DNA from: Euglena gracilis
Lineage: Eukaryota
Assembly (NCBI GenBank): GCA_039621445.1
Contig: CP154954.1
Coordinates: 36,441,703-36,505,702, forward strand
DNA: 64,000 nucleotides
Reading direction: 5' to 3'
The translations under genes were made by a program, and so were the position numbers. Positions 28,781 through 58,562 of this stretch are shown here, piece by piece. The notes beneath the pieces were generated by a model. It made no database searches, had not been told where the DNA came from, and saw only the letters and a list, made by a program, of their open reading frames with translations. How positions within the stretch are numbered: position 1 is the stretch's first letter; the number at the start of each line of letters is the position of its first letter.

Positions 28781-28790
28781 AGGGGGGGAG
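28781..28790 (+). promoter_or_regulatory. Polypurine tract
   Basis: AGGGGGGGAG immediately before the 3' LTR. Confidence 0.85.
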
Positions 28791-29906
28791 TGACGACCTT
28801 TTGAGGTCGACCGCCGGGCGGCGGAGTTTTTCCCTTTTAGAAGGCCTTTTGAGGGCGGTTTTGCTCTAATTTTAAGGCTTTCTAAAGATTTTTATTAAAA
28901 TTCCCTCTCCTAGGGCGCCCATGGTTTGGTTGTGCAAGGAGAGAGATTGAGTGATGCTAGGTAATCCCAAGGGGTGATTTTGGGTTTATTTAGCACAATT
29001 TAAGCTTTTTATGCATTTTTCCTTTGGTTTTAAGGGAAAATGTTGGATTTGGTGAGAGCGCTTGCAAGCGCTTGGATCAGATTTTTCTGAGATTGGCGCC
29101 TGAGTTCCTGGAGTTTTTGCAGGGGTTTGCAAAGCTCAATAATGATGGAATTCAGCATGATTTATCAAAATCAAGGGGGGAAACCTTGATTTTGACATGG
29201 GTTGGTTGATTTTGATGCAATGGGCAAGGATTTGGGATTTGAGAGCGCTTAGGAATCAGCGCACTCAATCCTAAATTTAACTGCCCATCAAGGGCATCAA
29301 AATCACATTCCTCTTCACAGGGTTTTCCTCTATTTTCCTCTTCACTTGTTTCACCATTGCATTTGTTGTGTCAATTACAACCAATTACATTCAATCATTG
29401 AACTTGGATTTACAATTGGAATTGCAAATGGAAGGACAACAAATCAATCAAGAAAGCTCAATTGAAGAAGGTGAGGTTTGTCTTCCCCCCACCTCATCTG
29501 TGGGAAAAGGGGCAGGGGGGTGGGTCTCTTCAACTCAGGCAACCACAGGCCAAATTTCACCCCAAAACCCCCTTTTTGGCCCAGAAACGGTGAGAAATGA
29601 CACCCAGGGGGGGGTGTTGGCTCTCACTGGTTCAGCTGAGCAGGGAGGGGTTGAAACCCCAAAGGCACCCCCCTTGGAGATCCCAGTGACACCCCCGTCA
29701 GGGGTCGGGGAGGGTCCACTGGGAAGTTCCTCCTTGGAAATGATGGCCCAGTTTCGGCCACAGGGGGGGCCAGAATGGGAAAAAATTTCCGACACAAGTC
29801 GGCTCGAGGAGCCAGAAAACGATCCTACGCCGGAAACTGGCCCGGGGCGGGGGTTTCCGCTTCACCCCAGTGCTGCCGGGGGACATGGCAGCACGGGGGT
29901 GAAACA
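28791..29906 (+). repeat. 3' LTR (1116 bp)
   Basis: Direct repeat of 16691-17809. Confidence 0.95.
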
Positions 29907-32279: not shown

Positions 32280-32906
32280 GTTCTCACGCTCTCCCAGTTA
32301 TTTTTCTTCGCTTTGTTGGCGTGGGCTTGCTGGTGTTTCATAAGCAAAGGGATCAAGACGAGGAAACAAGGAAGCTGAGGTGAGGGTTTCAGCCGTGAAG
32401 CAAGTATAGTCAATCGGTAAGAAATTTAACAGGTGTGGTTGAGATGATGGGGGCATCAACGCGTCTCTTCGAACAATTTGAGCTTGAATTGCTGTTGGGC
32501 TGATAAACTAAAAGACCAAAAATACAGGACATTTTGGGAATCTTTTGGAACCATTTCCGAAAGGGTGGCCCTTTTTTGTTGGCTTGAAATAAATTCCATT
32601 TCCACAGGATTTTCGCTGAAATCGCCAGTGAAGGACCCTTCGTTCTCAAAGCCACGCTATTCCGCCAACAGAGATTCTTCCCCAACAATGTCAAAACTTA
32701 AAACTTGGCAGCGGGTCGGCATGCGTGGGGGCAACGGAGGTTCGTCGACCGGGTCTCTGGGGTACGCTGGCCTGCAGGGTAGGTACGCGCTGTGGGGGGA
32801 GCGATTGGGTGGTGGACGGTGGGGCAGGGGAAAGGATGCGCAGTAGAGCGCATCCCTCGCTGACGCGGATCGCACGGAGACGGGGCGGGCGAAAATGGAA
32901 TGGAAA

Positions 32907-33147
32907 CTCGTACTCCCTCGGGGAGGACCGTCAAGGGAGGAAGGGAGACCGAGGGCGGAGCACAAAGACATTTTGAGCCCGACCCCCCCCCCTCCCATTG
33001 AAAAAAATTGCCTTCAAACGCCCTCGGCCAGAAAGTGGGGCTAGGGGGGAAGAGGAGGGGGGACCCCTACAGAGGAAGAGAAAGCACCATTGTCGCCACG
33101 AACAAGGCATGGCCTCACAATTGTCAAAGTGCGTTGCCCGGCGTGTC
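32907..33147 (-). mobile_element. Diverged miniature DIRS-end derivative
   Basis: Similar to the reverse complements of the DIRS right end and left end, with no ORFs. Confidence 0.55.
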
Positions 33148-33681
33148 CTTCGACGTTAAAGGCGCCGGGTGAATCGGGTCGATCGCAGCACCTTCGGGGA
33201 TAAACTGCTTTCTAGCCGGGCCTCTGTTGAGGACACCTCGGGCTCCGCACTTTGCCCTTGTGAGGCCATGCCTTGCTCGCCGGCGGTGTTGTTTGGATTG
33301 TTTGGGTGCGTTGGGTTAGGAGTCCCTGCTTAGTGCCTTTTTTTCGCCGGAGTTGGCTGATTCATAATTTGCTCTTCGACAACCCAGAAGAAAGGAACTT
33401 CAATTCAAAGAAGCTGCTTATTGAATTTCAAAGAATTGAACCAATCAAATTATCCGGAAGGTGACACTCGTGGAGAATATCGAATCCAATTTTGTTGACA
33501 TATTCAAGACTTCAATGAGAAATGCAATTGTCAACACGAAGAAGAGCGTCGCTGAACAACAAGAACTGGCTGCAGCCACAGCTGGACGACCTGACGGCGC
33601 GGTACAACCGTGGCGATCCGTGGCTGTCCCTCCCACCCCAGAAAAAGTTTCTGAAAAACCACCCAGTGACAGCCACAGAAT

Positions 33682-36491
33682 TTGGCAGACAGTGGTCAGA
33701 AAAACCCGAAGGACACCAAAGCCAAGGCAGCTGTCAAACCACAACGGCAAAGGCCATGGAGGCCCAAATCGCAGTTACACCAATACCTTGTTCAAGCTGG
33801 GCCATGGCGGCCAAAACAGCAAAGGCCATGGTGGCCGATGGAACAAAGGCCAGGGTGGCCAACATTACCAAGGCCAGGGTGGCCGATTCCACAAACAAAT
33901 GCCCAGTGGCAGGGGCAGGACAGGTCCACATCACCCCCCCCCAATCATTTCTTCATCAAAAACCCCATCAGGGGAAAAGGATTGGCCCCCAGAGGCCCCC
34001 CAAGATTTTCAATGGGCATGGCGCCCAAGATCAAAGAGAAGTCAATGGGGACATCAAGAAGGCCAGTGGGCCCAGAATTATCATCAAGGCCACTGGGGCC
34101 ATTGTCATTCTTATTGGGCTCAACACCATCCACAACAATTCAAGGCCACTGGGGCCATCAATTATCAGAAGGGGAAAAACCCCAGAAGCTAAAAGGCTGT
34201 CCCCCAGCAGGGGGTTTCAATGTACGGTGGCAGCCCCAGGAGGATGCCCCCAAAGGGGCAATAGAGGACAAGGGGGCAACCCCCCCTCAATATTCCTTAT
34301 CAATGCCCATGGCAGGGGCAAACCAAAACAAGGGGGAGACCCAACATGGGGCCCCTATGGTATGTCAATCGACAACGCCAATGACAAAGTGGAGGATCAG
34401 AGAGTCTGTGAGCAAAGCATGCACACCCCCCCAGCCACCTTCAGAGAATGCTCAATCCCTAGTGGCACCAGGGGTGCAATGTCCAACACCCCCCACCCAG
34501 CAACCCAAAAATCATCTAATTGGGAAAATAAATTCCATGGAGGAAAAATGGGGAGACACCCCCCTGTACCAGAGACTTCAGAAAAGTCTAAAATGGTGGT
34601 CAAAAAATGCCACCCCAGCAACATGTCAACTAATCCAAAATGGAATTCAACCCCCCTGGGTAAATCCCCCAAAATTGTCCACCCACCCAAAACCCAGAGC
34701 CAATCTGGACCTGAACCAGGCAGAAAAAATCCTCCTGGATTACGAAAAAACTGGGGCAGTGAAACGGGTTTGGGATTCAAAAACCCAACATTTGATCCCA
34801 TGGTTTTTAATTTCAAAACCAGAAGGGGGAACAACCAAGTGGAGAATGATCAGCGACTGCAGAGAAATAAATCTGCAGTTTCAAGTAAAACCTTTCAGGC
34901 TGGATCACATCCAGCACATTTTTCCAGTTTTGGGAAAAGGCCACTGGGCAGCCAAAATAGACCTAAAGGATGCCTATTTTCATATTCCAGTAAGTCCAGG
35001 CCTCAAACCATTTTTAAGGCATCAGGTGGGGGGGCAGACCTGGGAATTTCAAACAGGCTGCTTTGGGCTAAATATAATGCCCCAAATCTTCATGTCGGTA
35101 ATGAAAACATTCGAAAAGCTGTGGAGAAAAAGGGGCATCCAGGTGTATATTTACCTGGACGACATTTTGCTGGTGGCCCCCACCCAAAACACATTGCAAA
35201 ATTACCTGGACAGAGTTGTCAAAGATTTGCTGGATTCTGGGTTCAAAATAAATATAAAAAAGTCCACCCTCCAGCCCACCCAAGTGGTAACCCATCTGGG
35301 TTTTCAACTAAACTTCCAGGAAGGAAAGCTACAGGTGCCCCCCCAGAAAGTCAAAACCATAAAAAAGGAGCTGGGAAAAATCGTGAAAAAAGATTACATG
35401 TCAAAAAGGCAGTTGGCTGCCATTCTGGGCCAAATAAGATGCAATCTAATGGCCCTGCCCTTTTTAAGGGCTTTTACAGACACCCTGGCAAATTTTCTGG
35501 TGGCAAAGTCCACAGCCCCCTGGGACTCAAAACACCCCATTTCCCAGGAAATCAAAGCCCAATTAAGGGAAATAAAAATTCTGCTAGACACCTGGGGGGG
35601 CAGACCCTTCCCCCAAAATGCAACCAGAATGTAGCACTCAGACAGCAGCACCCATGCCTGGGGGGGGCTAGACATCCACACAGGAGAAATTGTGCAGGAA
35701 CTTTGGAGAAAAGACTACATTTTGCACATCAATGTAAAGGAGCTCAGTGCAGCAATCAGCACTGTGAAAAGTTTGAGCAAACCTGGAGAAACCGTTTCCT
35801 TGTCAGTGGACAACCAGGTAATTTATTTTTACCTAACAAAAGGTGGGGGCAGAAAGGACCCCTTCAACAAAATGCTAAGACCATTTTTCAAGTGGTGCAT
35901 GGAGCACCAAGTAAACCTCCAAGTCAACTGGGTGCCTTCAAAGGAATGCCTAGCAGACCCCATCAGCAGGTGGGAAATGGACAGGGGGGATTATTCTTTA
36001 GACCCCCAACTTTTTCAATGGCTGAGACAACAGTTCAAAGATTTCATAAATCTGGAAACAGATTTATTTGCCTCCCCGGCAACAAAAAACTGCCCAAATT
36101 TGTGGCCAGGTGGCCCCACTGGGAAGCAACAGCAGTAAATGCATTACAATGTCCACTGGACAGCATGGGGGATCTTTATGCAAACCCCCCCTGGTCAATA
36201 ATTCAAAAAATTTTACCCAGGTTGAAAATGTTTCCCCAGACCAAAGTTTTGATGGTCACCCCCTACTGGGATTCAGCCACCTGGTGGCCCCAATTAATAA
36301 AAATGAAAGTTCCAGGGACCCCCTGCCTGAAAATCACCCCCTACAAGGGCATGTTCACCAATTGCAAGGGGGAACAAATGCCACCCCCCAGGTGGCCCCT
36401 CCTTTGCATGATTTGCTCAGGCAAATTTTGTAAGGGAAACAAATTCAGGTTAAAACCATTGAAGATTTCCTGGGGAGAAACCCCAGTTTAA
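33682..36491 (+). pseudogene. DIRS RT - RNase H - N6-adenine methyltransferase (stop at 35632, frameshift near 36075)
   Basis: IDLKDAYFHI, FGL, YLDD, SDSS..WGG, HINVKELSA, VDN, DLFAS, YANPPW. Confidence 0.9.
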
Positions 36492-37600
36492 AGCGTTATC
36501 AGAGTGCCTTTGCACTTCTGTGGGTAATTTTGGAACAAATGGGGGTGCCCCCCCCTGAAGCCACCACAGACCAGGTGGCTGACGCTTTAATTCAATTATT
36601 CCAATTTTCCAAGGCCCAAGCCCGTAATGCCTATAGTGCAATGCTTTTGATTCCGGGGTTTGGTGGGCTGAGATTCCACACTCTGTTAACCCCCTACAAG
36701 AGGCTTTGGAACCAAAACTTGGAGAAGTATGGGGCATTTTGGGATCCCCTCCCAATCCTCCTGGGGCTGGCAAAGGCGCCTATGCCCACTGATATTTGTA
36801 CATTGCGTACACAACTGATTTTTTGTTCACGCATCCTCTGTTTATATCGATCCTCAGATTTGGCACAAGTCAAACGAACCACCAGTGTTTTGGGTAGGGC
36901 ACCCTACATCAAGATTAAGTGTAAAGGACAAAAATTTCACAAATGGGAACGGGGGGTGTCCATTCCCCAATGTCCCCAAATAAGTCCATTTCATTTAATG
37001 ATGTGCTATGTGGCTGCTACAGGTTTATTCGTCAGACCTGGGGGCCCCCTTCTGATTTCATTAAAACCCCCCTTCAGGGCCATAAGTGCAGACACCATTG
37101 CTTCTATCACAAAAGATTTCTTGGCCAAGCATGGGGTGACCCCCCAGGTGTGGGGGGCCCACTCCACCAGAGGAGCAGGAGTTGGTTTACTCAAAAAATT
37201 GGGCCTTTCTGCCCAAGAAGTTTGCGAAATTGGCCAGTGGAAGGGGGTGGAGGCTTTTACAGCCCATTATCAACGACTTGGTGCCCAAGGTGCCCTGGAA
37301 AATGCCCTGGCCCCCCTAATTTCAGTGCACAATCTGGCCTCACAAGGGCAAAGTGCGGAGCCCGAGGTGTCTCGTACTCCCTCGAGGCAAGCCGACCAGG
37401 GAGGAAGGGACACCGAGGGCGAAGCACAAAGACCTTGTGAGCCCGACCCCCCGACCCGTAAAAAAAAAATTTGTGTTCACAAGCCCTCGGTCAGAGAGTG
37501 GGGGCCAGGGGGGGGAGAGGGGGGACACCCCCCAGGGACAAGAAGCCACGTCGCCAAGTCGGAGCAGCATCGTCAGCCAACTCCGGCGAGGCGGCACTAA
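36434..37600 (+). CDS. DIRS tyrosine recombinase
   Basis: LYRSSDL (R), HSTR (HxxR), IGQW, HY (catalytic Tyr). Confidence 0.9.
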   Translation, partial: GKQIQVKTIEDFLGRNPSLKRYQSAFALLWVILEQMGVPPPEATTDQVADALIQLFQFSKAQARNAYSAMLLIPGFGGLRFHTLLTPYKRLWNQNLEKYGAFWDPLPILLGLAKAPMPTDICTLRTQLIFCSRILCLYRSSDLAQVKRTTSVLGRAPYIKIKCKGQKFHKWERGVSIPQCPQISPFHLMMCYVAATGLFVRPGGPLLISLKPPFRAISADTIASITKDFLAKHGVTPQVWGAHSTRGAGVGLLKKLGLSAQEVCEIGQWKGVEAFTAHYQRLGAQGALENALAPLISVHNLASQGQSAEPEVSRTPSRQADQGGRDTEGEAQRPCEPDPPTRKKKICVHKPSVREWGPGGGEGGHPPGTRSHVAKSEQHRQPTPARRH

Positions 37601-38263
37601 GCAGGGACTCCTAACCCAACGCACCCAAACAATCCAAACAACACCGCCGGCGAGCAAGGCATGGCCTCACAAGGTCTTTGTGCTTCGCCCTCGGTGTCCC
37701 TTCCTCCCTGGTCGGCTTGCCTCGAGGGAGTACGAGACCCCCGCGGGTCTGACGACCTGCTGGACTGCTGCCTTACCCCCCCACCCCAGGAAAGGGATCA
37801 CCCGAATCCTAGCAGAGTTGGCCCGACATGAAGACAATCAGAGCGAAACAACATCATTGATACAGCCTTTTGCAAGCAAACGCGCAAACGCTCCCGTCGA
37901 CTAAGAACGGGAGCTGAGAGGGCCAAATGGTCAGTCAACCGACCAGGCGCGGGTACTGGTTTTTGGAAAACAAACAAAGAAGACATTGCCCGCGATCAAC
38001 GGAGAAGGTTAGAAAAACTTCCAGCCGCCCTTCTGGCGGTTGGAAAAGCTTTACAAAGCTCCGATGGGGAGGGCCGGGCTGCCCCTGGCAGGCTGGACAA
38101 GTGGCTCAGCGTGTGCAGGGGAACGGTCTCGAAGGCAGGTCCTTTCTGAAGCCAGATGGCGCCGCAACTCCTCCCTTATTAAAGGGGTGACTGGCTTTTA
38201 CAGTTGGCTGAGTGGTTTTTTTTTGGTACAGCCAATGGCGGCGCAGGAATTTTTTCCCTTTTT

Positions 38264-38767
38264 TCGTACTCCCTTGAGGCAAGCCGAAAAGGGAGGAAGG
38301 GACACCGAGGGCGAAGCACAATGGCAAAGTGCGGAGCCCGAGGTGTCCAGAAAAAGGGAGACTTTTGAGAAGCCTAAGGTAAATTTGTGGCACATTTCTT
38401 TGGAAACCTCGTGCTCCTCACTTTTTCCTTGTCCCGCAAGGTCTTTGTGCTTCGCCCTCGGTGTCCCTTCCTCACTTGTTGGTTTACCGCGAGGGAGTGC
38501 GACTTGCTGAGCCCTTTTCTGCTGCCGTGCATGCCTGTTCCGAGAAGGAACGGAAGAGGAGCCTTTGGTGGAAGCGGCGCCTCGCCCGGGGCGAGGTGCA
38601 TCATCTCCACCATGGCCTTAACTGCCATTCCCCCCTTTAGAATTAAAAACAAACGCTGCTTTCCCTGGGTGTCCATTCCTCCCTGGCTTGTTTTTTTTTC
38701 AAACTCCCGCGCTCCCTCCAGGAAAACTGATGCCGAGGGCGAAGCGCAAAATGCCTTTCGAGGTGTC
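38264..38767. mobile_element. Cluster of three tiny DIRS-end derivatives (38264-38347 minus, 38403-38503 plus, 38703-38767 minus)
   Basis: Each is left-end and right-end sequence joined directly; the third is highly diverged. Confidence 0.6.
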
Positions 38768-40615
38768 CCTGCTTCTCTTTTTTGTAAGAAAAGAGAAAGG
38801 GGGGGGTGGACGACCCCCCGTCTTTAAAAAAAATTTTATTCGTTTTTTTTTTGGTCGCAAACCCCGCATGGGTTTTTTGGCGATTTTTCTTTGTCTGACC
38901 ATGCTCAAAAATGATGGGCAATTTTCAGGGTTGAGGAGGTCATTTTGGATTTGGGGATCGGATTTTCACCAACAAATCCCCAACTAATTAACTCCCCTTT
39001 GGCTGACCCACGAATCCAAGGGGATTCAGAAGCGATGGGGGGGGGGGACGGAGGGGAACCAGCGTGCACAACACGTCAATGAATTATGTCAAAAAGAGTT
39101 GGTTGGGCAAGGTTTACGCTCGCTCTAAGGGAAGGGAGTGAAACGATGCGGTGCAGCGGTGGTCAGAACCCTGAGCAAAGGAAAACACACACATATTTTC
39201 ATTCTGGGCCGGTTGCTGAAAACCTCTGGGCGTCCAAAACCTTGGTGGGGGGGTCTTATTTTGGTTGATTTCTTCACAAACCGGAAATTGCACCATGCAC
39301 ACAAATTGCAGTGAACCCCCCGGGGGGAGTCTCTAGCAGGGCAAGCCAGTGTAATTCTTTCCCCAGCGGCAGGCGCAATTGCTGGAAAATTTGTATCACA
39401 CCCCCAAAAGCCCGCCAAAAATGCCCCTTTTAGCAATTTTTGGATTTTTTGAACAAAATTAGTGGGGGACAAACCGTTAAAAACCCCATTTCCACCTCGG
39501 CGCACAGTGAAGGAGAAAAATTTATTCCAGCGGGGGGGGACCCCTGGACCCTCTCCCAAAAATAAAAACTGCGGCGAAACCGGCCGAACTTTGTAATCCT
39601 AATTTGCTCAAAGACCCCAGGCCTCAAGCTCAAGCCTCAAGCCTCAAGCCGGGAAGAAAAAAGCCACTAGCTTGACCCCCCCCCTGGCGGAGGGGGGGGC
39701 ACAAATAACACGCCGTCCTTTGTCATTTTTGTGCCCGAAAGAATCTAAAAGAAGAAAATTTCAGGGAAATTTTTCTCCCCGCTCAGCGCCACAGTTTTCA
39801 TTTAAGGGATTGGTATCTTGGGGGCTCTTGTTTCATCTTGGGAGGTCTTGGGGTGCAGTTTTACCTTCATCTGTTCCATTTTGTGATGCGAACTTTCCAA
39901 GGTGCGGTGTTGAAAACTGTGCTGGACATCGATCAGGGTGTACAGTGGGATACACTACTAACAGCTGTCACCGATGCCTGCTGAGCGTTCCGCCTTCCAT
40001 TCCGCTTACACACGTGCTGCAAGGCAGCCAGGCTCTAACGGGGGTGGCGCTGGGCCACTGAGTGATGGAAACGTATGCCGGGCAGCGCAGGTCAAGCAAG
40101 ATAGAAGTCCAGAAGTCCTCCGACCCCTCACGGCCCTGCGACATGGACCTCCCGCTGGTGGCCATCCCGGAGGACGGACAGCGTCGCCCCCTGGGGTCCC
40201 CGAAGGAAGTTGACCAGCTGCGCCGCCTCGCGCACGGGGTGGCCGGCGCACGCCGTGATGACGTCCCCCTCCTCCAGCCCCGCCTGGAACATGGTCCGTT
40301 GGAGGACGGCACAACGCGGAGCGGCGATGCAGGCTTCAACGCAGGACGAATCAAATCCACGTCCGCCTGTCTCCCCGTTCGTCTGCCATCTTCCAGTCCT
40401 GAGGACCCCCCAAACCTGCGATTCACTTCCCAAGCTGCTTAAGAGATCTCACCCGCCTTGTCGACTCTCCTGATCGTCTCCATGAAAATGGGCCAGATGG
40501 ATGTTCTCATACACGACAGGCACGCGCAAACAAACGCAAACAGGAGGGTCGGCACACCTTTTGGGCAACGGACGGCCGCTGGACGCGGGTCACAGCCAGC
40601 CCCGAGGGGGTGCTC

Positions 40616-41069
40616 TGGAGCAGGCTGTTGCTTAAAGACCCTGGGGGAGTCCTCTGGCTTGCCATTTTGCTAGACAACGGAAAAAATGGAGCTAGACCCC
40701 CCTCCCCCCTGGGGGGGGGGGGGGAAGGGTGTCCGAGGTCCCCCTGGCTGGGAAAAAAAGTTCCTCCAGCGCTGTGTGCCGAGGTGGACATGAGGTTTTT
40801 AGTGCATTTTTGGCCTATTTTGTTCCAAAAAAAAATCCCCCCAAAAGCCGAAAATGGGCATTTTTGGCCAGTGTTGGGGGTCCAAAAAAATTTTGGCGCT
40901 TCGCGCTGGTCATTGGAAAAAGAAAACATTTTTCCACTAGCCAGCCTTGCCAGACCCCGGCGGGGGGGTCTGCCAGGGTAGGGTTTCCATCAGCCAAATT
41001 TGGACAAGCTGCAGTCCAGCCCCCCCTCCCCCAGGAGGGTGCTGAGAACCCTCAAGCAGGAGCCTGCTC
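40616..41069 (-). other. Euglenid non-conventional intron (duplicate at 55589-56042)
   Basis: No GT donor; CAG at +4..+6, CTG at -8..-6, paired ends. Removal restores PLGLALQSTPSGLAVTRV of the PDZ domain. Confidence 0.8.
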
Positions 41070-43584
41070 TGGAGGGCCAACCCCAGCGGGCCCACCCTTG
41101 GCCGCGCGGTCGGCATCGCCGCGAGGGCATGCAGGAGGTCCCCCGCAGGGATGGGCGGATCCGGCAGGGGATGCCCCCCCCGTTCCGAACCCCCGCCCGC
41201 GTCCGCATACGTTGGGGTGTTGGGGGCCACTCGTCGGGTGTGCACTGCATGTCATCACTGCTCCCCGAATGACAACAAAGCGCAATGCCCACAAATGCCG
41301 CAAATGCCATCTCTGACCCTCATACAAATGCACCAGGGACGGCGTGGAGCAACCGAAGGGAGACGAAGAAATCAAATTGACTGTTTGGACAAGAAACCGA
41401 AGACAAAAAAACCAAGTAAGTCACTTGGATGGGGAGGGGCAGTTGATCAACCACTCAGTCAGTTAGCCCACTCTGGGGACAAAATGACTCTGGGGAACTG
41501 GGTTCAGAACGTCAGAAACGCTTTTCTGTTGGAACAACAATGACCGGTATCCTGCTGCAGCATTCTAAGTGATGCCGGGAATTCCAGTGGGAGAGAGGTT
41601 TGAGACGGGTCAGGCGCCCCTTCCCCCGCGTGCTCCCCGCCAGGCGTGAGCGCCTGCCGCAGCGCCTCCTCCTCCAGCAGCAGGCGGCGCTGGTCCGCCA
41701 CGCAGCGGAGGTCCGCCCTCAGGTCGTCCAGCGCGGCGGTGCGGTGCTGCAGCTCCGCGGCGAGGGCCCGGACCTCCGGCAGCGCGTCGGCGGGGGCCGG
41801 GCCGAACTGCCGCGCCCACCGTGAGGGGGGGGGTGGGTTGCTTGGGGCCCAGGCTTGGCCCAGCCAAAGCGGGCTGGCTTCGGTTTGGCGCCCACGGAAG
41901 AGTAAGCTCTTCTTGGGCATCCCACACCACGCTGGAGCTGGTTCTTCGACACAGGACCAGAACCGGGCAGACCTGCGCAATTTGCTGGGGGAGGGGCAGA
42001 TGACGAGCCTTAGGTGGATTATTCCCAGTTGGTGTGCATGTTCCTCGGAAAGAATTTGGATTTCAAGTGGACAAAAATGCGTAAGGGGGAGCAAGCCGAA
42101 AGCTTTTTTTGCTGCGGAGAGGGGGGAATGAAAATCTGTTGGCTGTGGTGTGCACAATATGTGAATTTGATGAAACCCTGGTTTCCCCAGCCTGGCAACA
42201 CCCCTGTCCCCTGGGCTCTGCAGTTCAGTGTTCAGCCCAGGGTGGGGGTGGCAGAGCCGGCAGGGGCGTAGGGGCGGAGGCGGCTCACCTCCTGCGCCAG
42301 CACGCAGATCTGCTCCTGGCGGCGGGTGTCGAAGGCGCGGACCACCTCCATCTCCGCCTCCAGGCGCTGGAGTTCCTGCGGCGGGGAGGTACTGTCCCAG
42401 TCTCCCCTTGCCGCATGGCGCTTGGGGACATCACCCGAAAAATACAGCAGGTGGATCCTTCCAACAATGTGTTTATTATTTGGTGGCTTTTTTGGGGGCA
42501 TATTGAGGGGGTACCAAGTTGCCCATGGACAATTAATTAACCTTCCAAATAACCAAATACAAAGCCCCCCCTCTGGGGAAGTGCCACAGCGCCAGCGGCG
42601 TGGGATGGACAGGAAAATTTCCCGAGATTTACCATTTTGTGAAGATTTCAGGAATTATTTCAGGCAATAATGAGCTTGGCAATGTTGGTATAAAAAATGG
42701 TGTGCAATATCGCTTAAAAATGGCAGAATTTGGGCAAAAAAAATGATTGCGAAATTCTTTTGGGAAACTCAAATGCGTTTGCCCCAGATATTTGATTTCC
42801 TGTCCAACTATAACCCCTCAAATATCAACCCCTCTGAGAGCTTTGAAATCCCGGGCTGATGCCGCTTTGTCTTCACCAGATTTTTACCAAGACCCTTGCC
42901 CTGGGGCCACATACACACACGCACACACATATGTATCCCCTCCCCACTTATCCCAGGCACAGCACCGTAAAAACACACACACACACACGCACACCTTGCA
43001 CAAAAAAAAATAAAAAAAAACAATGCACAAAACACAAAAAAAAAAAAAAAAAAAAAAAACAAGGGGAAACTGCAAACAACCACCAAATACAAACAACCCT
43101 TATGAGAGATGAAATTTTCATTCAAAAAATGTGCTTTGAACGGCCAAATTCTCGACATAAAGCAAACTACATATTACAACTCCACATATAAAAAACAACC
43201 CCAAACCCAAATATGTACAATAAACCCAAATGAGCGCTTTCATTCAGGGTGGGTACAGGAAAAATGATGTTTTGATGGTTTGACAATCAGGTGTATCTGT
43301 GTTGTGCTGTGCTGTGGTGCTCAAACCTGCACGTCCTCTTTGTCGACCATTCAACGCGGCGGTGTGACGGACACTCAGGCGAAAGCACGGACAGAGCACA
43401 CCTGTTCCTTCTCCGCCAGGTCCCTCTCCGTTGGGGCAATCGATCGCTCACCGTCCATCAGCACCCAGTCGGGCGATGGGCCACGAGGGGAAGCGGTGGC
43501 GGCAGGCGCCCCATCCAGAAACAGGCACACCTTGAATCCCTTGCTGGGTCTCGGAACCTCCAGCCGGCCACAGGGGGCGTCATT

Positions 43585-43585
<1 letters not shown>

Positions 43586-43664
<79 letters not shown>
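43586..43664. repeat. (CA)n microsatellite (duplicate at 58497-58561)
   Basis: Seen directly in the sequence. Confidence 0.95.
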
Positions 43665-43665
<1 letters not shown>

Positions 43666-43992
43666 GGGATGGGGAGCTGGGCGGGGGGCAGGAGGCGGGG
43701 CTGGCCAGCCCCGGCGTACTGGTAGACCCGCCTTACCGTCTGCACCGTCACCTGCTGCTGGATGGAGGTGGCCTCGCGGCCGCTGTGGCTCGCCGGGCTG
43801 GGGCTGGCGGAGGGGGAGGGGGGCGGCAGCGGGGCTGGCCCGGGGGCAGTCCGCGGCGGGCCTGGAAGGCGAATGTGAACTCCCCCGGGGGAACGACCCG
43901 ACTTTCTTTGCCGGGTCCCCTTTTGTTGGTTCTCGTCCGAGCGCCATCGGGGGGGGGGGGTGTCCCGCCGCAACGCACCACAACGCCACTGA

Positions 43993-45289
43993 CTTAGACG
44001 GCCGGGAATGCACTTTTCTTGTTGAGTCACAAAATTATGACAGTTTTAGTGAAAATGCGCATCCGCACATTTTGGACGCGGAGTGCGCAGGTGCGCATTT
44101 TGCATGGTTTGATGCCTCTTCCAGACTGGGAGTAAACACCATAAAAATGAGCTGTTTGGATATTACACGACCACAGGGACCATCCCCTTGTTTTCTGGTT
44201 CAACCACGTATTATGCTGTTTACAGCTGTTTCCCGACGACTGTTGTACAGTGCGTGGCTGGACTCACACTCGGCACACTCCACACGACATGCGGAACACG
44301 GGCGACGCACGCCAACCTGGACCTGGGTGTGCCACCTTGTGTTCACGGGTGCGTGCTGATGGCTCCTGGGGGCAGGGCCTGGTGAACCCGGGATGAGCAT
44401 GGGAGGGAACACCTTGCAGGCATGGAGACACAGCCCTCCCACGGTCAAAACAACAGGTGTATTACTGAGTGTCAAGGCCGAAGAATGCGCACCTGCGCAT
44501 TTTTTGGAAACCCCCAAAAATGCGCAGGTGCGCATTTTTTGGAATGGGCACAGCCTGTGGGAAGGGGGAATGCGCACACGAGCATTGATGTTGAAGGACA
44601 CACTGGGTACGGCCAGTTGTTTGCCTGCCTGGAATCCGAGCTGTGCACCGCTATGATGTGGTTTCAGGCTTGCAGAACATGGGTGTGTGAGGGGGAGATG
44701 AACCAACAGAATCACCCTGGGCAACCATGTCGTGGTACCAGACCGCACCCTGGAACGCCACACCTGCAGCGGCGTGGAAAACCCTGGGCTCGGCGACAGC
44801 AGGTGTCAAGGCACAAATTCATGTCCTTCAGTGATAGGGGAACTGCCCCCTGCAGTGCAAGTCATTGAGCAAATCAGAATGCGCACCCGCGCATTCCACT
44901 TCACCCGCTGCAGTCCAGTGCCCAGCCCAGCCTGCGCTGCTCTCATGAACGTGTGGAGCACGTAACAACACACAGGCAACGGTACCCCACCCAGCGGAGG
45001 TGGTGGGCCAGTTGGTGCCAGCGTTGTCTGACCCCACGCCCCAGAGCGTGCATGGCAGCACACAGCCAATGGTCGCACTGAACAACCTTACGTTGGGCTG
45101 CGGTACGAGGTGCAAGAAGCACTGTGCCCAACAATTAGGGTCAGCGCAGGGGGTTGTGTCTGGTACCACACACAGTGCTCACGGGGTTGGCACCTCGAGA
45201 GCGAAACACGCCTGTCACCACCTTCGGCATCATTCCCCCAAAACGGTCTGTAAACACAGAATTAATTCACAATCCAAATGGACTCAAAG
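43993..45289. mobile_element. Left part of the palindrome-rich TIR element, truncated by the duplication junction
   Basis: Matches 58893-60189. Confidence 0.85.
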
Positions 45290-45293
45290 GATA

Positions 45294-47246
45294 GGAGCCT
45301 TGGTACCTCGACGACGGCCACATCGTGGGGAAACCAGCGTTGGCGTTTGCCCGCCTCCATGGCCTCGGCACGGTCTGGGAGCGAGTAGGCCTCCACCTCA
45401 ATTTGGCCAAGTGCAAATTTTGGGGACCTGGGATGCAAACGGTCAATCAAGCCGGGCCACATTACCCAGAAGGTTTGGCAAAAGGCCACTTGGGACGACA
45501 AGTGCCCGTGATTCCCTTTGGAGGACCGAGGGGCATCACGACCCTGGCCGTCCCAATTGATGCCCCGCGGGAGCATCGCACAGCACAAAAGGACACGCCA
45601 AGAGCACCGCAATGCCAAGCTGTATAGGAAGAGACCGTGGACATGGCGACCTTGCTCTTGGAACGGCTCAGGGGATACCCAGAGGGGCAAGTGCGGCACG
45701 CACTTTTGCGGTAGTGTCTTGACGGATGTCTGGTGGTCCAGCTCCTCCGATCAACAGAGAGAGAAAACACACGGGACTCCCCGCTCATTCTCAGGGCACG
45801 GCTGCAGGAAGCCATACAAGATCCCCTCGGACTGGGAATCACCGAAAGTTCATGGGATCAGGTCTCCCTGCCCCTCCGCCAAGGAGGACTCGGAATCTCG
45901 GACCCCGAAGTGTTGCAACCCGCGGCACGTATGGCGGCCTTGCTGAATCTGGGGATGCACGGCAGCCAAGCGGTGGGGGTGCCAGCCTCGGCGTTGGCAA
46001 CCCCATCCCCGGACATGCAAGACATGGTACAACGGTTGCGGCAACAGCTTGGCCCCAACATGGATCCCGTGGCCATCTGGCTCGCGGGCACCACCCCACT
46101 CTCCTCCGCAGCACCAGAACACGCCACCCAACGGTGGTGGGCGTAGAAAGTGGCGTAAAAGCAGAGCCAGCGAGTGGACGCGGTCGGCTCTGCCAGGGAC
46201 CGGGTGAGACGGGCTTGCCAAAAGGGACCGGTGGCAACGGGATGGCTGCAGACTTTGCCCAGCAAGGCACAGCACACAGCTTTCTCGGACACCCGATACT
46301 GGCTGCTACTGCGGTGGTGGTGGCTTGGCTTGCCCATCCTCCTTCAGGGGTCACGTTGCCGGGGTGGTCCCGTGTCCCGGGGTCACTTCGTCTGCTGCGA
46401 GCAGAAAGGAAATACCCAACGGCACAATGCATTCCGAGATGCTTTTGCGGCGATGTGTGCCTGGTACAATATTGCGGCGGAGAAGGAGGTAGAGTGTTTG
46501 GCGAACAAAAGACCAGCCGATGTTCTCCTCATCAACATGTCACGGGAGCAACAAGTGGCAGTCGATTTCGTCTACAGCCACCCCGTGGTGCTGGGAGAGC
46601 ACCCACTGGTGGTGGACAATGCCCGCAGGCATTGCAACCAGGTGGAAACCAGGAAAGTGCAAAACGGATGGGCCCCTTCAGCAAAGGGGTGGAGCTTCTC
46701 ACCCTTCGGCCTGAGCACATGGGGAGGCCTGGGTACCTCTGCCAAGGCGGTGCTGTCTGAGGTCACCAAAATGGCCACCGCAGACATGCGGGGATGGCAA
46801 AGACAAGGGCCCTGCAAGAAATGCAGGTAGCATTATCGGAGACACTCATGCGCCACGTGGCGCGGAAGCTATCCGCCAGGGACCGCGTGGAGGAGGCCCT
46901 GCACCCATGGTAAGTCCCCAACTCCCACCGCAGACCACACCAAAAGCGAGCAAGACCAAGACCAAGAGGGCCACAACCCACAAAGTGCGGAGGTTCACCA
47001 CGGAAGCACCTCCCCCCCCCCAAAACGCGGCCCCCCGCACAAAAAAAACCAAATAAAAGAGAAGCCGCCAAAAAAAAAGAGCCTACACGCCAGGCGAAAG
47101 GTATCCGGCCAACGAGGCGACAAAGGGGAGTGGAGCCGGCAAAAGCAAGACACACGCAAAGTGTAGCCCGCCCGACCTGGACTCCACAAGGTGAGAAGAG
47201 AGTGCACGCGCGACCCAGCAAGCCGGCTATAGCCCCTAAAAAAAAA
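45294..47246 (+). pseudogene. Duplicated 3' part of the second CRE-like element
   Basis: Matches 30328-32279. Confidence 0.85.
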
Positions 47247-48488
47247 GTTCTCACGCTCTCCCAGTTATTTTTCTTCGCTTTGTTGGCGTGGGCTTGCTGG
47301 TGTTTCATAAGCAAAGGGATCAAGACGAGGAAACAAGGAAGCTGAGGTGAGGGTTTCAGCCGTGAAGCAAGTATAGTCAATCGGTAAGAAATTTAACAGG
47401 TGTGGTTGAGATGATGGGGGCATCAACGCGTCTCTTCGAACAATTTGAGCTTGAATTGCTGTTGGGCTGATAAACTAAAAGACCAAAAATACAGGACATT
47501 TTGGGAATCTTTTGGAACCATTTCCGAAAGGGTGGCCCTTTTTTGTTGGCTTGAAATAAATTCGATTTCCACAGGATTTTCGCTGAAATCGCCAGTGAAG
47601 GACCCTTCGTTCTCAAAGCCACGCTATTCCGCCAACAGAGATTCTTCCCCAACAATGTCAAAACTTAAAACTTGGCAGCGGGTCGGCATGCGTGGGGGCA
47701 ACGGAGGTTCGTCGACCGGGTCTCTGGGGTACGCTGGCCTGCAGGGTAGGTACGCGCTGTGGGGGGAGCGATTGGGTGGTGGACGGTGGGGCAGGGGAAA
47801 GGATGCGCAGTAGAGCGCATCCCTCGCTGACGCGGATCGCACGGAGACGGGGCGGGCGAAAATGGAATGGAAACTCGTACTCCCTCGGGGAGGACCGTCA
47901 AGGGAGGAAGGGAGACCGAGGGCGGAGCACAAAGACATTTTGAGCCCGACCCCCCCCCCTCCCATTGAAAAAAAATTGCCTTCAAACGCCCTCGGCCAGA
48001 AAGTGGGGCTAGGGGGGAAGAGGAGGGGGGACCCCTACAGAGGAAGAGAAAGCACCATTGTCGCCACGAACAAGGCATGGCCTCACAATTGTCAAAGTGC
48101 GTTGCCCGGCGTGTCCTTCGACGTTAAAGGCGCCGGGTGAATCGGGTCGATCGCAGCACCTTCGGGGATAAACTGCTTTCTAGCCGGGCCTCTGTTGAGG
48201 ACACCTCGGGCTCCGCACTTTGCCCTTGTGAGGCCATGCCTTGCTCGCCGGCGGTGTTGTTTGGATTGTTTGGGTGCGTTGGGTTAGGAGTCCCTGCTTA
48301 GTGCCTTTTTTCGCCGGAGTTGGCTGATTCATAATTTGCCCTTCGACAACCCAGAAGAAAGGAACTTCAATTCAAAGAAGCTGCTTATTGAATTTCAAAG
48401 AATTGAACCAATCGAATTATCCGGAAGGTGACACTCGTGGAGAATATCGAATCCAATTTTGTTGACATATTCAAGACTTCAATGAGAA

Positions 48489-51459
48489 ATGCAATTGTCA
48501 ACACGAAGAAGAGCGTCGCTGAACAACAAGAACTGGCTGCAGCCACAGCTGGACGACCTGACGGCGCGGTACAACCGTGGCGATCCGTGGCTGTCCCTCC
48601 CCCCCCAGAAAAAGTTTCTGAAAAACCACCCAGTGACAGCCACAGAATTTGGCAGACAGTGGTCAGAAAAACCCGAAGGACACCAAAGCCAAGGCAGCTG
48701 TCAAACCACAACGGCAAAGGCCATGGAGGCCCAAATCGCAGTTACACCAATACCTTGTTCAAGCTGGGCCATGGCGGCCAAAACAGCAAAGGCCATGGTG
48801 GCCGATGGAACAAAGGCCAGGGTGGCCAACGTTACCAAGGCCAGGGTGGCCGATTCCACAAACAAATGCCCAGTGGCAGGGGCAGGACAGGTCCACATCA
48901 CCCCCCCAAATCATTTCTTCATCAAAAACCCCATCAGGGGAAAAGGATTGGCCCCCAGAGGCCCCCCAAGATTTTCAATGGGCATGGCGCCCAAGATCAA
49001 AGAGAAGTCAATGGGGACATCAAGAAGGCCAGTGGGCCCAGAATTATCATCAAGGCCACTGGGGCCATTGTCATTCTTATTGGGCTCAACACCATCCACA
49101 ACAATTCAAGGCCACTGGGGCCATCAATTATCAGAAGGGGAAAAACCCCAGAAGCTAAAAGGCTGTCCCCCAGCAGGGGGTTTCAATGTACGGTGGCAGC
49201 CCCAGGAGGATGCCCCCAAAGGGGCAATAGAGGACAAGGGGGCAACCCCCCCTCAATATTCCTTATCAATGCCCATGGCAGGGGCAAACCAAAACAAGGG
49301 GGAGACCCAACATGGGGCCCCTATGGTATGTCAATCGACAACGCCAATGACAAAGTGGAGGATCAGAGAGTCTGTGAGCAAAGCATGCACACCCCCCCAG
49401 CCACCTTCAGAGAATGCTCAATCCCTAGTGGCACCAGGGGTGCAATGTCCAACACCCCCCACCCAGCAACCCAAAAATCATCTAATTGGGAAAATAAATT
49501 CCATGGAGGAAAAATGGGGAGACACCCCCCTGTACCAGAGACTTCAGAAAAGTCTAAAATGGTGGTCAAAAAATGCCACCCCAGCAACATGTCAACTAAT
49601 CCAAAATGGAATTCAACCCCCCTGGGTAAATCCCCCAAAATTGTCCACCCACCCAAAACCCAGAGCCAATCTGGACCTGAACCAGGCAGAAAAAATCCTC
49701 CTGGATTACGAAAAAACTGGGGCAGTGAAACGGGTTTGGGATTCAAAAACCCAACATTTGATCCCATGGTTTTTAATTTCAAAACCAGAAGGGGGAACAA
49801 CCAAGTGGAGAATGATCAGCGACTGCAGAGAAATAAATCTGCAGTTTCAAGTAAAACCTTTCAGGCTGGATCACATCCAGCACATTTTTCCAGTTTTGGG
49901 AAAAGGCCACTGGGCAGCCAAAATAGACCTAAAGGATGCCTATTTTCATATTCCAGTAAGCCCAGGCCTCAAACCATTTTTAAGGCATCAGGTGGGGGGG
50001 CAGACCTGGGAATTTCAAACAGGCTGCTTTGGGCTAAATATAATGCCCCAAATATTCATGTCGGTAATGAAAACATTCGAAAAGCTGTGGAGAAAAAGGG
50101 GCATCCAGGTGTATATTTACCTGGACGACATTTTGCTGGTGGCCCCCACCCAAAACACATTGCAAAATCACCTGGACAGAGTTGTCAAAGATTTGCTGGA
50201 TTCTGGGTTCAAAATAAATATAAAAAAGTCCACCCTCCAGCCCACCCAAGTGGTAACCCATCTGGGTTTTCAACTAAACTTCCAGGAAGGAAAGCTACAG
50301 GTGCCCCCCCAGAAAGTCAAAACCATAAAAAAGGAGCTGGGAAAAATCGTGAAAAAAGATTACATGTCAAAAAGGCAGTTGGCTGCCATTCTGGGCCAAA
50401 TAAGATGCAATCTAATGGCCCTGCCCTTTTTAAGGGCTTTTACAGACACCCTGGCAAATTTTCTGGTGGCAAAGTCCACAGCCCCCTGGGACTCAAAACA
50501 CCCCATTTCCCAGGAAATCAAAGCCCAATTAAGGGAAATAAAAATTCTGCTAGACACCTGGGGGGGCAGACCCTTCCCCCAAAATGCAACCAGAATGTTG
50601 CACTCAGACAGCAGCACCCATGCCTGGGGGGGGCTAGACATCCACACAGGAGAAATTGTGCAGGAATTTTGGAGAAAAGACTACATTTTGCACATCAATG
50701 TAAAGGAGCTCAGTGCAGCAATCAGCACTGTGAAAAGTTTGAGCAAACCTGGAGAAACCGTTTCCTTGTCAGTGGACAACCAGGTAATTTATTTTTACCT
50801 AACAAAAGGTGGGGGCAGAAAGGACCCCTTCAACAAAATGCTAAGACCATTTTTCAAGTGGTGCATGGAGCACCAAGTAAACCTCCAAGTCAACTGGGTG
50901 CCTTCAAAGGAATGCCTAGCAGACCCCATCAGCAGGTGGGAAATGGACAGGGGGGATTATTCTTTAGACCCCCAACTTTTTCAATGGCTGAGACAACAGT
51001 TCAAAGATTTCATAAATCTGGAAACAGATTTATTTGCCTCCCCAGGCAACAAAAAACTGCCCAAATTTGTGGCCAGGTGGCCCCACTGGGAAGCAACAGC
51101 AGTAAATGCATTACAATGTCCACTGGACAGCATGGGGGATCTTTATGCAAACCCCCCCTGGTCAATAATTCAAAAAATTTTTACCCAGGTTGAAAATGTT
51201 TCCCCAGACCAAAGTTTTGATGGTCACCCCCTACTGGGATTCAGCCACCTGGTGGCCCCAATTAATAAAAATGAAAGTTCCAGGGACCCCCTGCCTGAAA
51301 ATCACCCCCTACAAGGGCATGTTCACCAATTGCAAGGGGGAACAAATGCCACCCCCCAGGTGGCCCCTCCTTTGCATGATTTGCTCAGGCAAATTTTGTA
51401 AGGGAAACAAATTCAGGTTAAAACCATTGAAGATTTCCTGGGGAGAAACCCCAGTTTAA
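48489..51459 (+). CDS. DIRS RT - RNase H - N6A methyltransferase (one +1 frameshift near 51180)
   Basis: ORF 48489-51401 holds YLDD, RNase H, DLFAS and NPPW in one frame; the C-terminus is in ORF 51190-51459. Confidence 0.9.
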
Positions 51460-55100: not shown

Positions 55101-58100
55101 TCACGGCCCTGCGACATGGACCTCCCGCTGGTGGCCATCCCGGAGGACGGACAGCGTCGCCCCCTGGGGTCCCCGAAGGAGGTTGACCAGCTGCGCCGCC
55201 TCGCGCACGGGGTGGCCGGCGCACGCCGTGATGACGTCCCCCTCCTCCAGCCCCGCCTGGAACATGGTCCGTTGGAGGACGGCACAACGCGGAGCGGCGA
55301 TGCAGGCTTCAACGCAGGACGAATCAAATCCACGTCCGCCTGTCTCCCCGTTCGTCTGCCATCTTCCAGTCCTGAGGACCCCCCAAACCTGCGATTCACT
55401 TCCCAAGCTGCTTAAGAGATCTCACCCGCCTTGTCGACTCTCCTGATCGTCTCCATGAAAATGGGCCAGATGGATGTTCTCATACACGACAGGCACGCGC
55501 AAACAAACGCAAACAGGAGGGTCGGCACACCTTTTGGGCAACGGACGGCCGCTGGACGCGGGTCACAGCCAGCCCCGAGGGGGTGCTCTGGAGCAGGCTG
55601 TTGCTTAAAGACCCTGGGGGGGTCCTCTGGCTTGCCATTTTGCTAGACAACGGAAAAAATGGAGCTAGACCCCCCTCCCCCCTGGGGGGGGGGGGGAAGG
55701 GGTGTCCGAGGTCCCCCTGGCTGGGAAAAAAAGTTCCTCCAGCGCTGTGTGCCGAGGTGGACATGAGGTTTTTAGTGCATTTTTGGCCTATTTTGTTCCA
55801 AAAAAAAATCCCCCCAAAAGCCGAAAATGGGCATTTTTGGCCAGTGTTGGGGGTCCAAAAAAATTTTGGCGCTTCGCGCTGGTCATTGGAAAAAGAAAAC
55901 ATTTTTCCACTAGCCAGCCTTGCCAGACCCCGGCGGGGGGGTCTGCCAGGGTAGGGTTTCCATCAGCCAAATTTGGACAAGCTGCAGTCCAGCCCCCCCT
56001 CCCCCAGGAGGGTGCTGAGAACCCTCAAGCAGGAGCCTGCTCTGGAGGGCCAACCCCAGCAGGCCCACCCTTGGCCGCGCGGTCGGCATCGCCCCGAGGG
56101 CATGCAGGAGGTCCCCCGCAGGGATGGGCGGATCCGGCAGGGGATGCCCCCCCCGTTCCGAACCCCCGCCCGCGTCCGCATACGTTGGGGTGTTGGGGGC
56201 CACTCGTCGGGTGTGCACTGCATGTCATCACTGCTCCCCGAATGACAACAAAGCGCAATGCCCACAAATGCCGCAAATGCCATCTCTGACCCTCATACAA
56301 ATGCACCAGGGACGGCGTGGAGCAACCGAAGGGAGACGAAGAAATCAAATTGACTGTTTGGACAAGAAACCGAAGACAAAAAAAACCCAGTAAGTCACTT
56401 GGATGGGGAGGGGCAGTTGATCAACCACTCAGTCAGTTAGCCCACTCTGGGGACAAAATGACTCTGGGGAACTGGGTTCAGAACGTCAGAAACGCTTTTC
56501 TGTTGGAACAACAATGACCGGTATCCTGCTGCAGCATTCTAAGTGATGCCGGGAATTCCAGTGGGAGAGAGGTTTGAGACGGGTGAGGCGCCCCTTCCCC
56601 CGCGTGCTCCCCGCCAGGCGTGAGCGCCTGCCGCAGCGCCTCCTCCTCCAGCAGCAGGCGGCGCTGGTCCGCCACGCAGCGGAGGTCCGCCCTCAGGTCG
56701 TCCAGCGCGGCGGTGCGGTGCTGCAGCTCCGCGGCGAGGGCCCGGACCTCCGGCAGCGCGTCGGCGGGGGCCGGGCCGAACTGCCGCGCCCACCGTGAGG
56801 GGGGGGGGGTTGCTTGGGGCCCAGGCTTGGCCCAGCCAAAGCGGGCTGGCTTCGGTTTGGCGCCCACGGAAGAGTAAGCTCTTCTTGGGCATCCCACACC
56901 ACGCTGGAGCTGGTTCTTCGACACAGGACCAGAACCGGGCAGACCTGCGCAATTTGCTGGGGGAGGGGCAGATGACGAGCCTTAGGTAGATTATTCCCAG
57001 TTGGTGTGCATGTTCCTCGGAAAGAATTTGGATTTCAAGGGGACAAAAATGCGTAAGGGGGAGCAAGCCGAAAGCTTTTTTTGCTGCGGAGAGGGGGGAA
57101 TGAAAATCTGTTGGCTGTGGTGTGCACAATATGTGAATTTGATGAAACCCTTGTTTCCCCAGCCTGGCAACACCCCTGTCCCCTGGGCTCTGGAGTTCAG
57201 TGTTCAGCCCAGGGTGGGGGTGGCAGAGCCGGCAGGGGCGTAGGGGCGGAGGCGGCTCACCTCCTGCGCCAGCACGCAGATCTGCTCCTGGCGGCGGGTG
57301 TCGAAGGCGCGGACCACCTCCATCTCCGCCTCCAGGCGCTGGAGTTCCTGCGGCGGGGAGGTACTGTCCCAGTCTCCCCTTGCCGCATGGCGCTTGGGGA
57401 CATCACCCGAAAAATACAGCAGCTGCATCCTTCCAACAATGTGTTTATTATTTGGTGGCTTTTTTGGGGGCATATTGAGGGGGTACCAAGTTGCCCATGG
57501 ACAATTAATTAACCTTCCAAATAACCAAATACAAAGCCCCCCCTCTGGGGAAGTGCCACAGCGCCAGCGGCGTGGGATGGACAGGAAAATTTCCCGAGAT
57601 TTACCATTTTGTGAAGATTTCAGGAATTATTTCAGGCAATAATGAGCTTGGCAATGTTGGTATAAAAAATGGTGTGCAATATCGCTTAAAAATGGCAGAA
57701 TTTGGGCAAAAAAAATGATTGCGAAATTCTTTTGGGAAACCCAAATGCGTTTGCCCCAGATATTTGATTTCCTGTCCAACTATAACCCCTCAAATATCAA
57801 CCCCTCTGAGAGCTTTGAAATCCCGGGCTGATGCCGCTTTGTCTTCACCAGATTTTTACCAAGACCCTTGCCCTGGGGCCACATACACACACGCACACAC
57901 ATATGTATCCCCTCCCCACTTATCCCAGGCACAGCACCGTAAAAACACACACACACACGCACACCTTGCACAAGGGGGAACTGCAAACAACCACCAAATA
58001 CAAACAACCCTTATGAGAGATGAAATTTTCATTCAAAAAATGTGCTTTGAACGGCCAAATTCTCGACATAAAGCAAACTACATATTACAACTCCACATAT

Positions 58101-58495: not shown

Positions 58496-58562
<67 letters not shown>

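Follow-up and report, generated by a model that had tools for sequence, protein, structure and literature searches.

A 454-nt intron in a PDZ-domain gene of Euglena gracilis is a nonconventional intron made up of an element with terminal inverted repeats (TIRs) and one copy of an 8-bp flanking duplication. The gene lies on the minus strand of a 64,000-nt stretch of contig CP154954.1 (the window, to which all positions refer). The element is a 446-bp insert with CAG...CTG ends, and we assign a probability of roughly 0.7 to the reading that it is a non-autonomous element, similar to a MITE (miniature inverted-repeat transposable element), that sits in a PDZ exon and now serves as a nonconventional intron. 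Introns of this class account for 71.8% of all introns in Euglena agilis. A MITE-like ancestry has already been proposed for them (PMC3935182; PMC6221363; PMC12621601; PMC11170887), and an origin from MITEs that leave repeats resembling target-site duplications (TSDs) is in print (PMC3935182; PMC11282704; PMC12501133). The locus described here is a very clean example of this known class.

The 8-mer CTCTGGAG stands on both sides of the insert, with the coordinates and length claimed in an earlier reading made without database searches (the sequence-only reading), and the inverted ends, which that reading had called imperfect, match at 11 of 13 positions (CAGGCTGTTGCTT against CAGGCTCCTGCTT). 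The same reading described a perfect 8-bp TSD. The 8/8 identity stands, but the direct repeat is actually 10 nt long (TGCTCTGGAG, 40611-40620 and 41065-41074), as seen both by repeat finding and from a 10-nt slide of the splice joint; two letters beyond the 8-mer are expected by chance about once in 16 cases. The 8-bp parse alone keeps the inverted ends symmetric, a 9- or 10-bp duplication leaving them unequal. An 8-mer repeated within 3 kb is by itself common by chance and unremarkable. With the window de-duplicated, 407 CAG...CTG pairs lie 40-3000 bp apart and share at least 10 of 13 inverted-end positions; the flanking 8-mers agree at 0-6 of 8 positions in 406 of them, and 8/8 identity occurs solely at the 40621-41066 insert. 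Chance predicts about 0.01 occurrences in the window of an 8/8 flank combined with CAG...CTG inverted ends. A scan open to any termini (exact 6-nt seed, 6,641 pairs) returned 13 matches with 8/8 flanks. Nine of these fall within an AT/GA microsatellite around 13.0-13.3 kb, two are flanked by palindromes that only prolong a longer inverted repeat (1656-2054 and 37388-37719), and the remaining two are the focal insert and a separate element at 1633-2077.

The removal of the insert from RNA was followed by read mapping on 37700-45200, using contigs of X15 and X16 (probably RNA, a guessed label), raw RNA reads of X21 (sampled at about 5 in 100 reads) and a DNA run, X12, which is one of 14 DNA runs holding at least half of the stretch's sampled words. 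Among the runs indexed as containing the stretch, none was listed as RNA. The joint 40610>41065 omits 454 nt with 10 ambiguous letters, equal to the insert plus one copy of the 8-mer, and is carried by a 1080-nt contig of X15, a 930-nt contig of X16 and one raw read of X21. Its depth in X12 is 0, and X12 contigs span both insert borders (39478-40718 and 41006-41823); the joined form is therefore an RNA-level product, and the X12 sample contains the insert. The existence of intron-skipping contigs that are absent from X12 also argues that X15 and X16 are RNA. Both contigs map to the minus strand as a chain of exons and skip the other introns of the gene too. The junction check named in the sequence-only reading shows transcripts (two contigs and one raw read) joined across the insert, with exactly the insert and one duplication copy (454 nt) removed.

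Joining the exons by these coordinates gives a single open frame of 277 codons, with the stop in exon 39996-40282. The spliced protein is 40-43% identical to three PDZ-carrying proteins (P0001-P0003; E 7e-13 to 6e-10), and the alignment to them runs without gaps from just before the focal joint, across the position of the conventional intron, to the end of the domain. Taken alone, the C-terminal exon gives weak PDZ matches (PDZ_6, E 2e-5, under the Pfam cut-off). The expectation that removal restores the PDZ frame is confirmed by the 277-codon open frame and by the gapless PDZ alignment over the focal joint.

Eleven registers of the intron give the same mRNA, an equivalence that rests on the 10-nt slide. 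None of the eleven is GT-AG, GC-AG or AT-AC (the ends are GG..CA, AG..GC, CA..AG, GC..GA, AG..AG, GA..CA, AG..CC, CA..TC, CC..CT, TC..GC and CT..TG), and the GT-AG junctions that the sequence-only reading had listed as contrary evidence are absent from all of them. The register 40616-41069 has CAG at +4..+6 and CTG at -8..-6, the spacing on which the sequence-only reading relied, and its downstream exon opens with a purine. It is the register of the Euglena nonconventional code, 5'-N3CDG.../...CH'GN5-6|R, defined genetically by Nomura et al. 2025 (PMC12501133), in which the donor spacer of 3 nt is intolerant of change and an acceptor spacer of 5 nt is best, 6 nt being tolerated. Nonconventional introns often carry TSD-like repeats together with CAG and CTG at these same positions, and once the conventional introns are gone they are excised as circular RNA of full length (PMC11282704). 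Since CAG and CTG occupy +4..+6 and -8..-6 in the purine register, the offsets 3+5=8 give a scarless product at the 40616-41069 intron, and the sum proposed in the sequence-only reading is exact here. Cutting by the N3/N5 rule gives back the pre-insertion sequence for every CAG...CTG element that has an 8-bp duplication.

The course of events that we propose is as follows. A MITE-like element would have inserted into the exon for the start of the PDZ domain and duplicated the 8-bp target CTCTGGAG, so that the direct repeat is presumably a transposase-made TSD. In the minus-strand pre-mRNA the inverted ends would pair and bring both 8-mer copies together. Under the published code, the nonconventional splicing machinery would cut 3 nt ahead of CAG and 5 nt past CUG; these presumed cut positions are hidden within the 10-nt repeat. 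The element and 3+5 = 8 nt, that is one duplication copy, would thereby be removed and the pre-insertion coding sequence restored without a scar.

The minimum-energy fold of the minus-strand RNA contains such pairing: a 9-bp terminal stem (GAGCAGGCU), which includes three letters of each 8-mer copy (the final three on the left, the initial three on the right), then a 2x2 internal loop, and beyond it 14 further pairs, five of them G-U. The whole-fold z-score is -2.54. Pairing of the minus-strand ends with the use of G-U pairs had been claimed over about 18 nt; the pairing and the G-U pairs are there, but the paired region is longer (9 + 14 pairs) and is not strand-specific, because by energy the pairing of the plus-strand ends is no weaker (-41.1 vs -35.5 kcal/mol). 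In register, the sense RNA has five G-U pairs at antisense mismatches, and one or two differences run the opposite way. In view of these opposite differences and of an antisense pairing that is no weaker in energy, the strand-specific G-U argument for selection at the RNA level was rejected.

As the sequence-only reading had reported, the whole structure occurs once more in the window. This duplicate has CTCTGGAG at 55586-55593 and 56040-56047 and an insert 99.3% identical to the first. This second copy belongs to a tandem duplication with a 14.97-kb unit (30325-45289 vs 45291-60189; 99.3% and 98.2% identity in two blocks), and the two insert copies therefore represent one event, not two. The insertion presumably predates the 15-kb tandem duplication. 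The duplicated unit carries the entire PDZ gene and a reverse-transcriptase open reading frame (ORF), and RNA variants at 40073 and 40208 depart from copy 1. The features of the locus are collected in Table 1.

Table 1. Features of the focal insert, the PDZ gene and the second copy (window positions; joints are given as the two positions brought together)
Feature	Position	Strand	Remarks
Left copy of 8-bp flanking duplication, CTCTGGAG	40613..40620	.	direct repeat reaches 2 nt further left, to 40611
Right copy of 8-bp flanking duplication, CTCTGGAG	41067..41074	.	sequence reading
446-bp insert, CAG...CTG ends	40621..41066	.	long frames without Pfam match; interior modules high-copy in DNA run
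Left TIR, CAGGCTGTTGCTT	40621..40633	+	sequence reading
Right TIR, reverse complement CAGGCTCCTGCTT	41054..41066	-	11/13 alike to left TIR
454-nt nonconventional intron, published-code register	40616..41069	-	GAG-CAG...CTG-CTCCA, then exon base G; 10 other registers give the same mRNA
Interior module of insert	40740..40881	.	inverted 71% match over 146 nt to 39400-39538 in neighbouring 838-nt intron
34-nt core of insert	40992..41025	.	X12 depth about 136,000 vs about 5-10 for flanking unique contigs; abundant in RNA runs too
Upstream exon (5' side), start of PDZ domain	41075..41141	-	one 8-mer copy when intron placed at 40621-41074
Downstream exon, PDZ domain continues	40557..40620	-	then conventional GT-AG intron 40283-40556
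Exon with C-terminal half of PDZ domain and stop codon	39996..40282	-	transcript contigs, domain search
Exon-chain joint	43497>43683	-	read from contig pieces
Exon-chain joint	42379>43406	-	X15, X16 contigs
Exon-chain joint	41791>42244	-	X15, X16 contigs
Exon-chain joint	41141>41645	-	14 letters between are microexon 41320-41333
Exon-chain joint	40282>40557	-	X15, X16 contigs
Exon-chain joint	39157>39996	-	X15, X16 contigs
185-nt intron		-	CAG...CTG, N5
178-nt intron	41142-41319	-	CAG...CTG, N5
452-nt nonconventional intron	41792-42243	-	CTG...CGG, triplets pair through G-U
838-nt nonconventional intron, 3' untranslated region	39158-39995	-	CGG...CTG, N6; stop upstream in exon 39996-40282
Second copy of whole structure (duplication, insert 55594-56039, duplication)	55586..56047	-	sits in tandem duplicate

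A transposon-type insertion is the probable origin of the 446-bp insert. The duplication abuts the inverted ends exactly, has a standard TSD length, 8 bp, and fits the Hermes target preference nTnnnnAn on both strands (PMC10368747). The 8-nt direct repeats at a recently gained gapC intron of E. agilis (PMC4770533) are a precedent. The insert has the features of a MITE in its size (446 bp), its TIRs (11/13), its 8/8 duplication and the lack of any Pfam family in its two long frames. Its interior consists of dispersed-repeat modules: X12 depth is 643, 906 and 16,273 in three insert bins (about 5-10 in the unique contigs on either side) and far higher in the 34-nt core (Table 1). Contigs of X12, X15 and X16 join 40868, 40870 or 40894 straight to 40992-40996, as expected if there are related copies elsewhere whose interior is shorter. 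In a common variant of the 34-nt core, position 41006 is T, where the window has A. Subterminal matches of the insert to the 838-nt intron (13/14 and 13/15; E 0.16-0.55) were judged to be chance. Rfam models over 37700-45300 gave sub-threshold hairpin-like microRNA (miRNA) matches alone, none accounting for the insert, and no tRNA was found in the window.

Several observations weigh against a transposon-derived intron at this locus. Because the splicing code itself requires inverted ends, these do not count as separate evidence of a transposon. In the window the tandem duplicate is the only end-to-end match, and no other copy with these termini was found there; loose ends at 40621 or 41066 are absent among the matches listed in the read mapping, and the contig that holds the left terminus has unique depth. 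Metagenome scans with the left terminal 24-mer and with the high-copy core (one degenerate position) gave 0 matches. A protein-level search with the 160-codon open frame of the insert gave 79 candidates, none significant, and the 55 long frames scanned in the window held no DNA transposase, their mobile-element families being reverse transcriptase, RNase H and integrase alone. Of the things that the sequence-only reading had suggested looking for, copies with these ends other than the tandem duplicate were found neither in the window nor by the metagenome scans or the protein-level search, and no autonomous hAT element was found in the window. Both termini read CAGGC and fit the hAT motif YARNG at four of five positions, the fifth base being C. 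Raw-read support for the joint 40610>41065 is one read and the RNA label of X15 and X16 is guessed, and the look for an empty-site allele covered one DNA run (X12) of the 14.

Among the known superfamilies hAT is the best guess for the insert, though less likely than not, and we do not assign the element to it. An 8-bp TSD is typical of hAT elements, whose terminal motif is YARNG (PMC3014272), and the target preference of Hermes is nTnnnnAn (PMC10368747). CTCTGGAG fits this pattern, its second base being T and its seventh A on both strands (chance about 1 in 16). The 8-bp duplication is present, though the repeat is 10 nt, and 8 bp alone suits the symmetric ends. The sequence-only reading had called the insertion hAT-like: the duplication, the CAG ends and the nTnnnnAn target speak for this part of the claim, while the YARNG fit stops at 4/5 and no hAT transposase was found within the window. 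Compared with hAT MITEs (PMC3014272; PMC10368747), the insert is alike in its 8-bp duplication fitting nTnnnnAn, its CAG termini, its short imperfect ends, its small size and its non-coding nature, and differs in its fifth terminal base, C instead of G, and in that no hAT transposase was found reported for euglenids.

Mutator-like elements make 9-10-bp duplications and P elements make 8-bp ones. The mechanism may be the same but the element a member of a superfamily other than hAT: Merlin (8-9 bp), P (8 bp) or a Mutator-like element (9-10 bp, the duplication then being the entire 10-nt repeat); we consider this unlikely, if well within reason. The 10-nt repeat and the 4/5 fit to YARNG speak for it. 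Merlin, in two families with 8-bp TSDs and GG termini (PMC8101967), is the sole kind of DNA transposon that we found reported for E. gracilis, and no paper reporting hAT elements in Euglena was found in open-access full text and bioRxiv. The E. gracilis Merlin elements resemble the focal insert in making an 8-bp target duplication in a euglenid genome, but end in GG...CC instead of CAG...CTG (PMC8101967). Merlin was rejected for the focal insert, whose ends begin with CAG and whose GG...CC parse leaves unlike flanks, and a 9- or 10-bp parse was rejected for breaking the symmetry of the inverted ends. A MITE-like element of a different kind lies at 1633-2077 (region 1625-2085). It is 445 bp long, has a perfect 8-bp duplication (GAATATTA) and carries nearly perfect GG...CC inverted ends of about 58 nt (65 nt at 98% in the repeat finder, including part of a palindromic flank); judged on the sequence features given in PMC8101967, it is Merlin-like. 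Elements with inverted ends and 8-bp duplications thus do occur in this genome.

Two further origins were considered. Repair of a double-strand break, the main rival of a transposon insertion, in which a staggered break is filled in to leave an 8-10-nt repeat and a filler is captured from dispersed repeats with no transposase, would make the insert spliceable if the captured piece had, or later evolved, CAG/CTG pairing ends. This was the authors' reading of the 8-nt direct repeat at intron 4 of gapC, recently gained in E. agilis ACOI 323 (Milanowski et al., 2016; PMC4770533). It would suit an insert whose interior is a patchwork of modules that are high-copy elsewhere, a full repeat of 10 nt instead of 8, and the failure to find another copy with the same ends. 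A filler, however, would need inverted ends matching at 11/13 (23 RNA pairs) that start by chance exactly at the inner edges of the repeat. The symmetric ends also leave exactly 8 bp, a standard TSD length, in a target that fits nTnnnnAn, and the window holds a second TIR element with an 8-bp duplication (1633-2077). Break repair is accordingly a distinctly improbable origin for the insert. Least credible is that an old nonconventional intron stands here, or one relocated through reverse splicing of its circular RNA, with the 8-10-nt identity arising by coincidence or through intron sliding. In E. agilis 84.4% of introns, both kinds included, do have short direct repeats at their flanks (PMC12501133), and excised nonconventional introns are circular (PMC11282704). 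Such an origin is highly improbable in view of the chance expectation of about 0.01 for the window; reverse splicing, moreover, makes no target duplication, and the intronic parts of both repeat copies, which are free of coding constraint, are still identical, which indicates a young age.

Whether the relation 3+5=8 extends beyond the focal intron was considered within the same gene, which has one conventional intron (40283-40556, GT-AG after a shift of 1); the mixture of conventional and nonconventional introns fits a euglenid. Four of its other introns likewise carry C-D-G and C-N-G triplets, either within the code register or close to it. The ends of the 452-nt intron at 41792-42243 form an 11-bp stem that contains two G-U pairs; the 8-mers on its two sides, CCCCCACC and CCCCCGCC, are 7/8 alike, which may be chance, as the flanks are C-rich. 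A 14-nt microexon, 41320-41333, is present in both transcript contigs between two non-GT-AG introns (41334-41644 and 41142-41319). For the gene's six other non-GT-AG introns, the flanking 8-mer identity in the code register is 6, 3, 7, 2, 3 and 0 of 8. Compared with locally displaced 8-mers and without the focal intron, two values of at least 6/8 have P of about 0.002 and the sum has P of about 0.01. Compared with a cross-pairing of the introns the excess is not significant (about 0.1), four of 42 cross pairs reaching 6/8 and one 8/8; it is lost because several intron ends are C-rich (CCCCC, CCGCC before the purine). The enrichment of 8-nt flanking identity that the sequence-only reading had named as a test was thus not significant in these six introns against cross-pairing, and we do not count them in its support.

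The N3/N5 spacer rule might exist because 3+5 equals the 8-bp duplication of a CAG...CTG-ended, hAT-like transposon family, a conjecture that seems to us rather doubtful. If it is true, the splicing machinery is an RNA-level excision system matched to a CAG...CTG-ended transposon, one that erases the element and one duplication copy scar-free, and CAG...CTG elements could colonise exons freely and become the majority intron class of euglenids. An 8-nt rule of general validity would link the splicing code to the staggered cut of the transposase. It predicts that, in the code register, flanking identity is confined to eight positions (five exonic and three intronic on the left; five intronic and three exonic on the right) and is strongest in young introns. 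A statement that 3+5 equals the duplication length, or of a link to hAT, was not found in open-access full text and bioRxiv (subscription journals and supplements being outside this scope). The sequence-only reading had presented the scarless removal as what would be a mechanistic origin for the intron class; in this it was anticipated, as the MITE origin, the TSD-like repeats and a young intron with 8-nt repeats were already published.

[quoted passage not shown] It differs from them in degree, its flanking repeat being a complete, undecayed 8-mer (10 nt in all), by which the composition of the intron, element plus one duplication, is directly visible at this locus. For gapC intron 4 of E. 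agilis youth was shown by absence from other strains (PMC4770533), whereas for the focal locus inverted ends, a target pattern and, from RNA, exact removal are documented. In Micromonas, dinoflagellates and tunicates, introners and MITE-derived introns are likewise DNA transposons that land in exons and are removed from the RNA, with the duplication helping to define the site of removal; these are described as spliceosomal, with splice sites taken partly from the element or the duplication, whereas removal here follows a CAG/CTG hairpin code that does not look spliceosomal (PMC11282704). The MITE hypothesis has so far rested on inverted ends that the code demands and on short TSD-like repeats. 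The focal locus shows the whole predicted anatomy without decay, with inverted ends, a complete 8-bp duplication and an exact removal from RNA by which a domain-coding frame is restored.

Other repeats were noted in the window. A dispersed repeat at 43975-45200 adjoins the 5' end of the PDZ gene; its X12 contig depth is 4,600-10,000, and further copies of a part of it, about 90% identical, stand at 58893-59697 and 63184-63999. The long, hairpin-like palindrome at 38293-38473 gives a sub-threshold match to one miRNA-precursor model on both strands, has an X12 bin depth of about 51,000 with numerous variant joints, and probably represents a further foldback element of the dispersed kind. A long terminal repeat (LTR) retrotransposon spans 16691-29907, with 1120-bp LTRs (16691-17810 and 28791-29907) that are 99.6% alike and ORFs for reverse transcriptase, RNase H, integrase and a chromodomain. 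Long plus-strand ORFs at 33519-37597 and 5642-8178, one of them inside the duplicated unit, carry reverse-transcriptase domains without integrase and resemble long interspersed nuclear elements.

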